DNA from: Escherichia coli
Lineage (GTDB): Bacteria > Pseudomonadota > Gammaproteobacteria > Enterobacterales > Enterobacteriaceae
Length of the DNA stretch: 64,000 nt
Direction: 5' to 3' (one strand)
Assembly: GCF_003019035.1 (NCBI RefSeq)
Contig: NZ_CP027447.1
Shown here: piece after piece, positions 55,404 through 57,716 of the stretch
Layout of the letters: the number at the start of each line of letters is the position of its first letter
Position numbering within the stretch: position 1 is the stretch's first letter
Position numbers and translations under genes: made by a program
Notes under the pieces: model-generated
Databases searched by the model: none
Seen by the model: only the letters and a program-made list of their open reading frames with translations
Told to the model about the DNA's origin: nothing

Positions 55404-57716
55404 GTGCATATGTTTAAGCCCAGGATTTGCAGCTGGATAGGTTTACTTCCCCTGTTTATGCTGAGTCTTCCAGTACAGGCGGACCTTCGATGTGTTGCAA
55501 ATGCAGTTGATATTGAACCATTTTTTTCTGCGGCTACCGCTGAAGATAAACAACAAGTTGAACAAGCTATCAACAGTAGCGTGAATCTTGTCCCCTTCGG
55601 TTTATCTGCATCGGACTGGAAAGTGCATCGTGGCGATTTAGTGGTAGACGGTAATATAGAGAGTAATCAAAAATTGATTGTTCTTGGCAATTTGACAGTC
55701 AAAGGTAATATTTCCACTTTCTCTCTTTCTAATCCATGGGTTATTCTCGGTAACGTGACGGCAACGAATATAGTTACGGATTCACCACTGTTAATTACCG
55801 GTTCGATAAATGCAAGTGGACTGGTATTTATCGACTCATATTACGATAATCCGTCTACGATTAAGGGGAGTATTAATGCGCGTGGGATATTTATCAATGA
55901 CATAATTGCACCTGTTGTTGCGTCTTCGACAAATAGTGAATTCATGGTCCGTGCGAGTGACAAAAATGACACTGAAAATGTCAAAAAAGCGCTGATGATA
56001 ATAAATCCTGATGCATATTATTGGGATCTAATAAATGATGAAGATGCTCTGAAAGAAATTTTTAAGCGAAGCAATATTCGCATGGCAGGGAATGTCTGTA
56101 ATCTGATGAAAAAAGAAGCGCTGTTTCGCCCTAAGCCTTCTCCTGAGTTAGTGCAGGAATTGCAAATGCTGGATGAAGGCAACGTTGCTGCATTTGAAGG
56201 ACGAGATATTGCGACATTTGATCTTGCCATAATGCGAACTCTCCCAAGGCTTAAAGGAATTTCAGCTAACCTACGCAAACAACTTATTAATAGCAATGAT
56301 GGACAAACGATTGAAAGTATGGCGAGATATATGCCTGACAATGAGATTCTGGAGTTGACCGATCAGCAATTGGGTTACCAGCCTGTTGTTCTGGGGTTGC
56401 TCGACCGTGAACCGCTCTCTGTCGAAATAATGACGCGAATGAGTCATCTACCTGATGGTGTCGGTCCGTTGAATCTTGCGCTACGTGAAAATCTCCCTCT
56501 GGATATCGTCATGACTCTGGCGAAAAGAGATTGGGATATGATCATTCAGGAGCTTTATAAAGATGCGTGGTTATTGCCCGAATCCATTATTGATGGCTAT
56601 ATCCGCAGTAATGATCCCACAATTCGTCAGGTCGGTGCTGGAGGACAACTCACCTACAATCAGGCAATGCAGTTGGCGAACGATTCATCAAACGATGTTG
56701 TCACAAGCTTAGCGTCAAAGCTGGCAGAGATGAAACACCATGGTCAATTGTTGCGGATGACGCCACAAGAGAGTGACAAAATAGCAGTATATTTATACCA
56801 AAAATTCGAGAATGACGATGATCTAATAGGTGCGTTATTTTTAGCGTTGCCAGATAACTTACAGTTTAATTTTGTTAAAAGGATGGAGAAAAAATCCCCT
56901 GCCTACTTTTGCTGTCGGGATATGCAGGTAATTCACTCTGACGCTGCTTTACAACGGTTATTGACACGTTTCAACGATCCTGAGGGGTGGAGTAATCTGG
57001 CGAAAAATCAGTATCTGAGTACGGCGATGAAACAAAAAATTTGGCATCGCGCTTTATTGCATCGAAAAAATAATCCGAAAGCAGATTCTGCAGCATATGA
57101 AACCAGCGCTGATATGATTTTGTCGGAGCTTATCAGCTACGGTGAAGTTGATGACCAGATGCTATTAAATGCCGCCTCTCTGATACGTTCGGAAGGCTGG
57201 GACTTTTTAGAGAGTGCATTAGTTAGTTGGGATAATTTACCCGCTGTTGTCCTCAAGGAATTACAGCAAAATATGCCACGCAATGATATTTGGGCGAAGT
57301 TTTTTCTGAGGCAGGAAAACAGCTCTCGTGCGCAGGTTAACGAAGCGTTACGTGTTTATTATGCACTAGACCCCGATGCGTTAGCACAACTGGATGTACT
57401 GGCAAAACAACCGGATCGTATATGGTGGAGTACACTGGCGAAAAGCAATCTCACATTTTTCAAGTTCGGCGCACTTAACAACCGCCACACACCGCCTGCA
57501 GTACTGGCGGCAGAAATTGATCCCGAGTGGTGGATTGTGGCGATGAATAATCCCCGTTTTCCAGTTGATGTATTAAAGGCGAGGCTGAAACGTGATCCTT
57601 TGCTGGCGTTAGAGCTTGTTAACCCTGAACTGGATTTAGTCCGCCAGCTGGCGCTTAACGGTAAGACGCGCGCAATACGGGAACAAGCGATGAGAAAACT
57701 TGATGAGTTGTATTGA
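55404..57716 (+). CDS. ydbD: large secreted protein of unknown function
   Basis: 770-aa ORF with N-terminal signal peptide, N-terminal beta-solenoid-like V/I-x-G-N repeats and C-terminal helical repeats; AT-rich coding sequence; start may be the second Met. Confidence 0.8.
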   Translation: MHMFKPRICSWIGLLPLFMLSLPVQADLRCVANAVDIEPFFSAATAEDKQQVEQAINSSVNLVPFGLSASDWKVHRGDLVVDGNIESNQKLIVLGNLTVKGNISTFSLSNPWVILGNVTATNIVTDSPLLITGSINASGLVFIDSYYDNPSTIKGSINARGIFINDIIAPVVASSTNSEFMVRASDKNDTENVKKALMIINPDAYYWDLINDEDALKEIFKRSNIRMAGNVCNLMKKEALFRPKPSPELVQELQMLDEGNVAAFEGRDIATFDLAIMRTLPRLKGISANLRKQLINSNDGQTIESMARYMPDNEILELTDQQLGYQPVVLGLLDREPLSVEIMTRMSHLPDGVGPLNLALRENLPLDIVMTLAKRDWDMIIQELYKDAWLLPESIIDGYIRSNDPTIRQVGAGGQLTYNQAMQLANDSSNDVVTSLASKLAEMKHHGQLLRMTPQESDKIAVYLYQKFENDDDLIGALFLALPDNLQFNFVKRMEKKSPAYFCCRDMQVIHSDAALQRLLTRFNDPEGWSNLAKNQYLSTAMKQKIWHRALLHRKNNPKADSAAYETSADMILSELISYGEVDDQMLLNAASLIRSEGWDFLESALVSWDNLPAVVLKELQQNMPRNDIWAKFFLRQENSSRAQVNEALRVYYALDPDALAQLDVLAKQPDRIWWSTLAKSNLTFFKFGALNNRHTPPAVLAAEIDPEWWIVAMNNPRFPVDVLKARLKRDPLLALELVNPELDLVRQLALNGKTRAIREQAMRKLDELY

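Follow-up and report, generated by a model that had tools for sequence, protein, structure and literature searches.

A predicted exported beta-helix and alpha-solenoid protein encoded by the accessory gene ydbD of Escherichia coli

Four groups of described proteins come closest to the product of ydbD. First, bactofilins (PF04519; Caulobacter BacA, 2n3d; Thermus, 6ria) are cytoplasmic proteins built on a right-handed three-sided beta-helix of about six windings with about 18 residues per rung. Second, beta-helical adhesin modules are represented by 4wa0 and 6n2b, FHA (1rwr), HxuA (4i84), Pet (4om9), Hbp (3ak5) and the 'putative adhesins' of Bacteroidales (3ljy, 3lyc). Third, bacterial alpha-solenoids of the LRV/HEAT type (PF01816; PF25591, LRV_2; PF02985; PF10098, DUF2336; YibA, 1oyz; alphaRep designs) consist of regular two-helix repeats. 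Fourth, the DUF2773 or YdbD-like family contains the protein itself. The gene is among the remaining E. coli K-12 y-genes without an assigned function, and the stakes of assigning one are modest. Here, we compare the locus with these systems in the window, that is, the whole stretch of 64,000 nucleotides of E. coli DNA that was analysed.

The ydbD gene, its start and its transcription

The open reading frame at 55404-57716 is E. coli ydbD, a gene already catalogued; the region is 100% identical to that of E. coli strain SCU-301, whose RefSeq annotation confirms the name given in the initial annotation. The 2.3-kb frame on the plus strand described there is also present, but the product of 770 aa counted from 55404 needs correction. 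The GTG at 55404 lies two codons ahead of the ATG at 55410 that RefSeq/PGAP uses as the start, and it corresponds to GCG in E. albertii. A Shine-Dalgarno sequence, GGAG (55400..55403, plus strand), can be read 6 nt ahead of the ATG, and the segment GGCATGGAG(T/C)GCATATG is kept in three Escherichia species and in the deletion scar of CFT073. The CDS is thus placed at 55410..57716 on the plus strand (768 codons and a stop; open reading frame list and RefSeq CDS of the identical strain), and with the start at ATG 55410 the product has 768 aa. The gene had been located between the ydbA autotransporter gene and the ynb operon, which omits pdxI (54486-55346), the upstream neighbour of ydbD; it encodes an aldo-keto reductase and separates ydbA from ydbD.

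An intrinsic terminator of pdxI was found by terminator scan at 55354..55395 (plus strand; 12-bp stem, 6-nt loop, T-rich tail), with a hairpin of -18.6 kcal/mol and z = -3.3 by RNA folding. This strong terminator stops 27 nt short of the ydbD start codon, and a hairpin of other sequence occupies the matching position in E. whittamii and E. albertii. A consensus scan gave no sigma-70-like promoter upstream of the ydbD start, the nearest plus-strand match (55684-55712) falling within the CDS, and no sigma-E motif (GGAACTT-N16-TCTGA) was seen by eye between pdxI and ydbD. No canonical terminator was found by the scan downstream of the gene. The description of ydbD as monocistronic therefore lacks support from the sequence, since the terminator on its 5' side is accompanied neither by an upstream promoter nor by a canonical 3' terminator.

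Published data point to very low expression, in line with the terminator ahead of ydbD and the lack of a promoter-like site before its start. The protein was below 1 ppm, and in RB-TnSeq both ydbD and ynbB affected fitness though they are very lowly expressed (Price et al. 2016, PMC5053530); such an effect could come from polarity or cis effects, not from protein function. A link to the envelope comes from a sigma-E overexpression microarray in which expression of ydbD rose 3.9-fold (Bury-Mone et al. 2009, PMC2731931), a single experiment in whose sigma-E table the gene carries no marks from prior studies, and the effect may be indirect. Silencing by H-NS can be suspected only from the AT-richness of the gene, and our literature search found no report linking H-NS with ydbD.

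Composition, distribution and loss of ydbD

The composition of ydbD is clearly atypical. Its GC is 0.433 compared with 0.514±0.036 for 42 window ORFs, its GC3 of 0.406 (0.542±0.059) is the lowest among these 42, and its Karlin codon bias B of 0.367, calculated as the deviation from the codon usage of the remaining window genes taken together, is the highest of the 14 window genes with at least 450 codons. The gene is indeed AT-richer than the core genes around it, as had been noticed at first sight, and neither ordinary GC and codon usage nor a confident enzymatic domain was found. Since ynbA (GC 0.446) and ynbB (0.434) are also low in GC, the AT-rich block spans about 55350-59400. The GC of ydbD is equally low across all three Escherichia species.

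Close orthologues were detected only in Escherichia (E. coli, E. albertii and E. whittamii) when 100,044 species genomes were scanned with a query alignment of 5 sequences; outside this genus the scan reached only some beta-helix-only Streptomyces proteins. A search of 1.84 billion protein representatives gave about 40 distant full-length relatives with 16-29% identity, mostly metagenomic and including Pseudomonas sp., Undibacterium sp., Tahibacter amnicola and a 'Pseudomonadota' MAG. When the family profile was run in a second search, against word-indexed proteins, E. coli sequences dominated and no further distant taxa appeared. Tandem paralogues of the family are found in Pseudomonas and Undibacterium. 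Within Escherichia, the distribution of ydbD varies independently of ynbABCD, and all four combinations of presence and absence are seen. No operon partner is conserved in nine contexts (E. coli, E. albertii, E. whittamii and six distant loci), and because of this a functional coupling of ydbD to ynbABCD or ydbA was rejected.

With its atypical composition and patchy distribution, ydbD has the features of a horizontal islet, and it was probably acquired horizontally. Mobility signatures were not seen: there is no tRNA in 47000-64000, no flanking direct repeat and no annotated mobility gene nearby. A defence or phage origin was also considered, and it was dropped because PADLOC and PHROGs gave no matches for YdbD.

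The gene is frequently lost or damaged in E. coli. Of 5426 complete genomes, 3990 (73.5%) have it and 26% lack it, and its flanks are found in 5287. IS1 and IS5 insertions occur, and truncated, internally deleted (in-frame), frameshifted and fused variants are frequent, together with one duplication. CFT073 has a clean deletion, the scar of which retains the first 30 nt of ydbD and contains a 106-nt filler without a DNA match to any ydbD allele. In one frame, this filler has a peptide resemblance ('FIDSY') that is too weak for interpretation.

These losses raise the question whether ydbD is a functionless, silenced relic of an old horizontal transfer that decays and persists by drift, a reading that we regard as unlikely. 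The scarcity of the protein, a dN/dS of 0.40 within species and a second ydbD paralogue at the rdgC locus, which is already fragmented, agree with such decay. However, E. coli, E. whittamii and E. albertii all keep an intact frame of 768 codons at dS 0.4-0.7, and the dN/dS between species is 0.16-0.18 overall and 0.06-0.09 in the beta-helix segment. A central segment (codons 246-687) has a low dS. The low ratio between species identifies ydbD as a real protein-coding gene, and an intact frame at this divergence together with low dN/dS requires sustained purifying selection. The conserved signal peptide and Shine-Dalgarno sequence, as well as the reported fitness and stress-induction signals, also speak against a relic. 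Compared with pdxI and ydbH (0.03-0.06), a dN/dS of about 0.17 indicates that ydbD evolves under relaxed purifying selection.

Predicted export signal and domains of YdbD

The N-terminal segment MFKPRICSWIGLLPLFMLSLPVQA (aa 1-24; 55410..55481, plus strand), disordered in the AF2 model, is a predicted signal peptide. As read from the sequence, it has n-, h- and c-regions and an AXA-like site: a positive n-region (K3, R5) is followed by a 14-residue hydrophobic core, and the predicted signal peptidase I site lies after VQA, with DL at the start of the mature protein. The hydrophobicity heuristic for the N-terminus gives 2.16, and neither an L-x-x-C lipobox behind the h-region nor an RR motif is seen. 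By these heuristics YdbD carries a Sec type I cleavable signal, and we infer that it is exported and located in the periplasm. An N-terminal hydrophobic segment is found in 26 of 43 family members; 17 have no obvious signal peptide at the called start, and in both of the two that we examined a mis-called start had concealed one.

The AF2 model of full-length YdbD (pLDDT 88.1, pTM 0.77) shows four parts, namely the signal-peptide-like segment, a beta-helix, a linker and an alpha-solenoid. An N-terminal cap (aa 25-69; 55482..55616, plus strand), with one alpha-helix at aa 44-53 in the AF2 secondary structure, precedes a right-handed three-sided beta-helix (aa 70-185; 55617..55964, plus strand) of about 6 rungs with about 18 aa each. 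AF2 places 16 short strands within aa 70-181 with high confidence, the N-domain modelled alone reaches pLDDT 89.5, and all 6 occurrences of [VILA]xG[NSD] lie inside aa 70-185. At the DNA level, a repeat with a spacing of 54 nt (18 aa) is found at 55628/55682, and the segment is the most AT-rich portion of ydbD (GC 0.38). A search of PDB sequences with the N-domain profile gave nothing significant (MinC at E about 1). The linker (aa 186-245; 55965..56144, plus strand), delimited by AF2 and by conservation in the family alignment, has a capping helix (aa 188-197), a low-confidence loop (aa 207-213) and an LFR motif (R240) that is conserved across the family.

After aa 186 the model is all-alpha, with about 38 helices over aa 229-767. 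AF2, Foldseek and the Pfam matches of relatives assign aa 246-768 (about 520 aa; 56145..57713, plus strand) to an alpha-solenoid of the ARM/HEAT/LRV type. Foldseek returned only ARM/HEAT solenoids for this part (E 3e-5 to 1e-3), including designed armadillo proteins, the PP2A-A subunit and karyopherin-beta, as well as alphaRep and YibA. Among the 43 relatives, 20 match LRV (best 1.2e-14), 19 match LRV_2 and 17 match HEAT; E. coli YdbD itself matches none of these three Pfam models. Its last 81 aa (aa 688-768; 57471-57713, plus strand) are Pfam DUF2773 (PF10971), matched with E = 1.3e-45 and 153.9 bits against a cut-off of 25 over the whole 81-position model. Internal DNA repeats 438-480 nt apart occur in ydbD, and Tandem Repeats Finder gave nothing, from which we conclude that the repeats are present at the protein level only. 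The outline drawn in the initial annotation, with an export signal, a beta-solenoid-like N-terminus of V/I-x-G-N repeats and a helical repeat-like C-terminal region, is therefore recovered by the sequence heuristics, by the motif and modelled strands of aa 70-185, and by the AF2 helices with their ARM/HEAT matches.

PGAP names the product 'DUF2773 domain-containing bactofilin' or 'polymer-forming cytoskeletal protein', and Pfam Bactofilin gives a weak match (E = 0.031). If taken literally, these names would mean cytoskeletal filaments formed by end-to-end polymerisation of the beta-helix, with the solenoid recruiting clients, which we consider extremely unlikely. The match scores 14.9 bits, below the gathering cut-off of 27.9, this model gives E < 0.1 for just 3 of the 43 relatives (best 0.025), and the domain profile found no bactofilin among PDB sequences. 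In the model, helices aa 44-53 and 188-197 directly flank the beta-helix, where bactofilins need free ends, and about 6 copies per cell are too few for a cytoskeleton. Because YdbD is predicted to be exported, as the signal peptides in the family also suggest, a cytoplasmic polymer would not fit. The 'bactofilin' label in RefSeq thus probably reflects fold-level resemblance only and is misleading.

Proposed function and comparison with known systems

The reading that we prefer, with slightly better than even confidence, is that YdbD is a two-domain repeat protein of the envelope that is exported by Sec, has no enzymatic activity and is encoded by a foreign accessory gene, weakly expressed and dispensable. 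The low-GC gene would have entered the ancestor of E. coli, E. albertii and E. whittamii beside pdxI, and it would be expressed very weakly, plausibly through read-through of the pdxI terminator. After export, the signal peptide would be cleaved, probably after VQA-24, leaving a short right-handed beta-helix held rigidly against the LRV/HEAT-type solenoid of about 520 residues. Binding would be the likeliest mode of action: the solenoid may present an elongated surface to which a polymer or an extended partner, peptide or protein, could bind, and the beta-helix may serve as a second binding or spacer module. YdbD would then be a periplasmic adaptor or scaffold, neither a catalyst nor a cytoplasmic filament, and its dispensability would agree with the deletion, IS disruption or truncation of the gene in many E. 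coli lineages. It counts against this proposal that similar beta-helices are found in enzymes and adhesins too, and that methylglyoxal sensitivity is not explained by a simple binder model.

The methylglyoxal phenotype leads to the idea that YdbD is an enzyme or detoxification factor, either a beta-helix enzyme active on glycans or a protein that acts on methylglyoxal itself. Some sources label it 'protein involved in detoxification of methylglyoxal', a name that goes back to one transposon screen in which ydbD was associated with sensitivity to methylglyoxal (Kim et al. 2007, cited in PMC13313352). Pectate-lyase-like enzymes are among the proteins built on right-handed beta-helices (the fold matches contain 3lyc and 4phb), pdxI is an aldo-keto reductase gene, and a glyoxalase gene adjoins one distant homologue. 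However, the glyoxalase neighbour is seen in 1 of 9 contexts, and Pfam, NCBIfam, PADLOC, PHROGs and PDB searches by sequence or fold gave no enzymatic domain or enzyme family. Across the 43 relatives only R240, D271 and N533 are invariant or near-invariant polar residues, and no catalytic-looking constellation is conserved. Judging from its size of about 115 aa, the beta-helix would be without the extended loops and the clefts seen in beta-helices of lyases or hydrolases. The methylglyoxal link is one phenotype, reportedly obtained in a glyoxalase-deficient background, and could be indirect or polar on ynbABCD. An enzymatic role is accordingly rated as very unlikely.

The best fold matches of the beta-helix, which are adhesins and secreted proteins, suggest another possibility: YdbD could leave the periplasm after Sec export and act as a surface-exposed or secreted adhesin or effector whose beta-helix binds a host or environmental surface. 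The top matches are tapirins (4wa0, 6n2b), the TPS domains of FHA and HxuA, the passengers of Pet and Hbp, and EtpA; ydbD lies near the ydbA autotransporter gene, and an accessory, fast-evolving, variable gene with tandem paralogues in other genera recalls surface-protein families. This fate is nevertheless improbable in our view. A beta-barrel translocator domain is missing from the modelled protein, none of the nine contexts shows a conserved TpsB, usher or T2SS partner nearby, and there is no lipobox. In addition, the beta-helix, of only about 6 rungs, lies buried between its caps, ydbD is retained in E. albertii, where ydbA is missing, and expression is extremely low.

A bolder version of the preferred envelope-protein reading is that YdbD is the founding member, and a genetically tractable one, of an exported family joining a bactofilin-like beta-helix to an LRV-solenoid, and that it self-assembles or scaffolds a periplasmic complex under envelope stress. 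We regard this as a long shot, even a shade less probable than enzymatic activity. If true, it would be the first extracytoplasmic structural use of the bactofilin fold, and the sigma-E induction and methylglyoxal sensitivity would be accounted for via envelope integrity.

The present analysis adds that ydbD is restricted to Escherichia and compositionally foreign, and that many lineages are losing it, a loss that is independent of the ynbABCD lipid operon. It can serve as a small case study of a foreign gene that has long persisted while very weakly expressed and whose GC has not drifted towards that of the host, and follow-up would be better aimed at periplasmic partners than at cytoskeletal or enzymatic assays.

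The beta-helix of YdbD has the handedness, the three sides, the winding number and the rung length of bactofilins and superposes on the entire bactofilin core at 2.0-2.5 A, but the sub-threshold score, the predicted signal peptide, the flanking helices and the fused 520-aa solenoid set it apart. Compared with the beta-helical adhesin modules, the YdbD beta-helix is much shorter, has only 8-14% sequence identity and comes with no translocator or partner secretion gene. The C-terminal 520 aa resemble the LRV/HEAT solenoids in their regular two-helix repeats, and relatives of YdbD score on LRV, LRV_2, HEAT and DUF2336; the repeats of E. coli YdbD are too degenerate for this, the terminal DUF2773 being the only model matched, and YdbD also differs in its predicted export and in being joined to a beta-helix, a two-domain architecture that the fold search found in no solved structure. 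Within its own family, the DUF2773 model covers only the last 81 aa and is matched by just 10 of 43 relatives; YdbD matches it over its full length, and about 40 full-length relatives have the same plan of signal peptide, beta-helix and solenoid.

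Locus, start codon and transcription

Over positions 54300-58600, the window, which is E. coli chromosomal DNA, matches strain SCU-301 at 100% identity and K-12 at 96-97%, and its RefSeq gene order is ydbA autotransporter, pdxI, ydbD, ynbA, ynbB, ynbC, ynbD and azoR. The initial annotation had placed ydbD between ydbA and the ynb operon. On the downstream side this holds, as ynbA comes next, but on the other side pdxI (54486-55346), lying between ydbA and ydbD, had been left out. The gene had also been listed as a 770-aa ORF beginning at a GTG at 55404. However, RefSeq annotates the ATG at 55410, a Shine-Dalgarno GGAG is read at 55400-55403, and E. 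albertii has GCG in place of the upstream GTG but keeps the Shine-Dalgarno and ATG. The ATG is therefore the true start, and the product has 768 aa (55410-57716, plus strand).

Two nearby frames are split in the window. ydbA (48316-54278) is divided into ORFs 48316-51162 and 51102-54278 by one G missing from a poly-G tract at 51029-51035 (G6 versus G7 in SCU-301, whose 5964-nt ydbA is intact), the sole difference over 5.96 kb; either a sequencing error or an on/off switch of the slipped-strand kind could account for it. ynbD (61076-62467) is present as ORFs 61076-61570 and 61625-62467, and the SCU-301 annotation (14876-16168 of locus L001) calls it a pseudogene interrupted by an internal stop.

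Upstream of ydbD, a canonical intrinsic terminator with a 12-bp stem and a T tail (-18.6 kcal/mol, z = -3.3) stops 27 nt short of the ATG, and a hairpin is kept at the equivalent site in E. whittamii and E. albertii. No sigma-70-like promoter scored upstream of the start, the nearest plus-strand match lying inside the coding sequence (55684-55712), and no canonical terminator was found after the gene. From the sequence, we infer that ydbD would be transcribed mostly by read-through from pdxI, so the earlier description of the gene as monocistronic is unsupported. Such read-through fits the protein abundance of under 1 ppm reported for YdbD (PMC5053530), a source that lists YnbB with YdbD as proteins important to fitness although present at under 1 ppm (Price et al. 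2016). Upon sigma-E overexpression, ydbD was up 3.9-fold, and its entry is without the superscript marks that flag others in that table (PMC2731931), marks which we read as denoting earlier sigma-E studies. In addition, ydbD, its function given as unknown, appears among the YciT targets from ChIP-exo, and a ydbD sweep was reported in an iron(III) selection experiment.

Predicted export signal and two-domain architecture

The signal peptide proposed initially is well matched by the N-terminus, MFKPRICSWIGLLPLFMLSLPVQA|DL, which has the parts of a predicted type I signal peptide and neither a lipobox nor a twin-arginine motif. By a hydrophobicity heuristic, 26 of the 43 full-length relatives in our alignment have an N-terminal segment of this kind. 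The two closest distant relatives apparently have no signal, but both starts were mis-called, and in-frame upstream sequence restores classic signal peptides (MLKLNILTGCIIMIGLNSFAQSA|QW and MAKVGWFIPLLLTGVFIMASFSAAA|TPW). Because of these segments and mended starts, export is probably a family trait.

Using sequence-family searches, only DUF2773 on the final 81 residues (Pfam, E = 1.3e-45) and a sub-threshold Bactofilin match at aa 78-141 (14.9 bits vs a cut-off of 27.9) were obtained, with a chance-level MinC hit in NCBIfam. The reading of YdbD as a true bactofilin polymer fails on this score, on the export signal and on copy number. A confident AlphaFold2 model built from the 43-member alignment (pLDDT 88.1, pTM 0.77) has a disordered signal-peptide segment (aa 1-25), a single helix (aa 44-53), a beta-helix of sixteen short strands (aa 70-181), a helix (aa 188-197), a poorly modelled loop (aa 207-213) and about 38 helices (aa 229-767). 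Both the solenoid-like N-terminus and the alpha-helical, repeat-like C-terminal region noticed earlier are recovered in this model. Within YdbD, all six copies of the motif [VILA]xG[NSD] fall in aa 70-185, the 18-aa register of the beta-helix is also seen in the DNA, and left-handed beta-helices align to it only at about 12 A rmsd. When the helical part was compared with the PDB by Foldseek, only ARM/HEAT solenoids were matched (E 3e-5 to 1e-3), including designed armadillo proteins, the PP2A A subunit and karyopherin-beta2. Since Pfam also detects LRV (20/43), LRV_2 (19/43), HEAT (17/43) and DUF2336 (10/43) among the aligned relatives, the modelled solenoid appears to be of the LRV/HEAT type, degenerate in E. 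coli. Internal DNA repeats spaced 438-480 nt, which code for W-x-x-LAK motifs, support an ancient internal duplication within it. The combination of beta-helix and solenoid was not found in any solved structure. YdbD-type beta-helix modules also occur in unrelated proteins, actinobacterial ones included, either alone or as fusions with ankyrin repeats, DUF285 or FapA/MinC-like solenoids (P0142, P0150, P0183; Streptomyces loci L009-L012).

The reading with the best support is that of a non-catalytic, exported protein composed of a beta-helix and an LRV/HEAT solenoid, which would act by binding, as an envelope adaptor or scaffold. The analysis establishes the (modelled) architecture, the composition, the distribution and the selection on the gene, whereas export, location, a binding role and read-through are inferred. 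A secreted adhesin would share the fold resemblance, but no secretion partner was found. As for an enzyme or methylglyoxal detoxifier, the 'methylglyoxal' names of ydbD rest on one screen (Kim et al. 2007, as cited elsewhere). The searches with YdbD brought up no supporting domain, no enzymatic family and no conserved set of catalytic-type residues; apart from R240, D271 and N533, the positions invariant or nearly so across the 43 relatives are G, L or A.

Composition, relatives and selection

The GC and GC3 of ydbD are 0.433 and 0.406, against means of 0.514±0.036 and 0.542±0.059 for 42 non-overlapping window ORFs, among which its GC3 is the lowest, which confirms the initial impression of a gene more AT-rich than its surroundings. 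Among the 14 window genes of at least 450 codons, its codon usage is furthest from the pooled window genes (B = 0.367 vs 0.16-0.32 for the others). The beta-helix segment is its most AT-rich part (GC 0.38). Low GC extends into ynbA (0.446) and ynbB (0.434), which puts the AT-rich block at about 55350-59400. In these two genes (57887-59388), codon usage is also deviant and dN/dS is raised (0.12-0.27), and normal composition resumes at ynbC. The ydbD orthologues of E. whittamii and E. albertii are likewise low in GC, 5-7 points under their flanks, and high-GC relatives match the composition of their own hosts. The AT-richness of ydbD is real and old, and has not drifted toward host GC.

HMMER, run exhaustively over 1.84 billion representatives, gave 169 matches, including about 40 full-length relatives with 16-29% identity to YdbD; the rest were E. 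coli fragments or proteins sharing the beta-helix alone. Named relatives are from Pseudomonas sp., Undibacterium sp. and Tahibacter amnicola, and most others are metagenomic. Their gene neighbourhoods have nothing in common among themselves or with E. coli. Similar-sized repeat-protein genes stand adjacent in a Pseudomonas sp. MAG (764 and 768 aa; L019 2581-7307) and in tandem in Undibacterium sp. (750, 752 and 481 aa; L020 2572-8884), which hints at local paralogue expansion. In T. amnicola, a glyoxalase-family gene lies directly downstream of and convergent to the homologue (L021 7410-7943), a single case worth mention only because of the methylglyoxal label.

When 100,044 species were scanned with one genome each, E. 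whittamii (86%) and E. albertii were the sole sources of close orthologues. No match came from the E. coli representative, as would fit a phylogroup B2 strain without ydbD. Among 5426 complete E. coli genomes, ydbD is present in 3990 and its flanks in 5287. It has been cited as an 'orthologous ORFan' having a K-12 paralogue (PMC1559721). A second, divergent family member lies in fragments (116-aa and 370-aa ORFs) at the rdgC locus of some E. coli and Shigella (L022 230-1708, contig UCZG01000003.1, adjoining rdgC-mak-araJ-sbcC), with 46% identity to the metagenomic relative P0039 and only 29% to YdbD. This copy is probably the 'paralogous ORFan' of Yin and Fischer 2006.

The 768-codon frame is intact in three Escherichia species. 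Between species, the overall dN/dS is 0.16-0.18 and that of the beta-helix 0.06-0.09 (pdxI, 0.03-0.06; ydbH, 0.04); within E. coli, dN/dS is 0.40. ydbD is thus a real gene under relaxed constraint, and the idea of a functionless relic is contradicted by this between-species purifying selection. Against E. albertii (L015), the central solenoid (56145-57470, codons 246-687) has a dS of about 0.45, compared with 1.0-1.6 at both ydbD ends and 1.1-1.2 in pdxI and ydbH, a mosaic that suggests inter-species recombination or unusual synonymous constraint.

Locus states and decay

The distribution of ydbD relative to ynbABCD takes four forms: pdxI-ydbD-ynbABCD in K-12 and this window, pdxI-scar-ynbABCD in CFT073, pdxI-azoR without ydbD and ynb in EcPF7, and pdxI-ydbD-azoR without ynb and ydbA in E. 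albertii. ydbD is therefore uncoupled from the ynb operon and from ydbA. Since the terminator and Shine-Dalgarno are still present in the CFT073 scar, together with the initial 30 nt of ydbD, the gene was lost in that lineage and not gained elsewhere. The 106-nt filler that follows those 30 nt (L006 4152-4257, pdxI-ynbA interval) matches no ydbD allele and nothing in the window; a 'FIDSY' peptide resemblance in one frame was too weak to interpret.

Decay is widespread. IS1 and IS5 insertions and a frameshifted pseudogene were seen, and the protein collection holds forms cut off at residue 434, 621 or 705, one that lacks its N-terminus and begins at M179, variants with in-frame deletions, one with residues 291-495 duplicated, and fusions to pdxI or ynbB. 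For example, the 711-aa alleles (P0012 and related), on 88 contigs, have a 57-aa in-frame deletion (window equivalent 55707-55877) that removes three beta-helix rungs between repeated KGN and KGS motifs, and their RefSeq product name no longer has 'bactofilin'.

In conclusion, ydbD is best explained as an accessory gene of foreign derivation that is old, dispensable and weakly expressed. Public databases already contain the gene, with its DUF2773 and 'bactofilin' annotations and its status as a gene of unknown function. Rather than describing a new kind of system, our analysis refines the annotation of ydbD and supplies its evolutionary picture.
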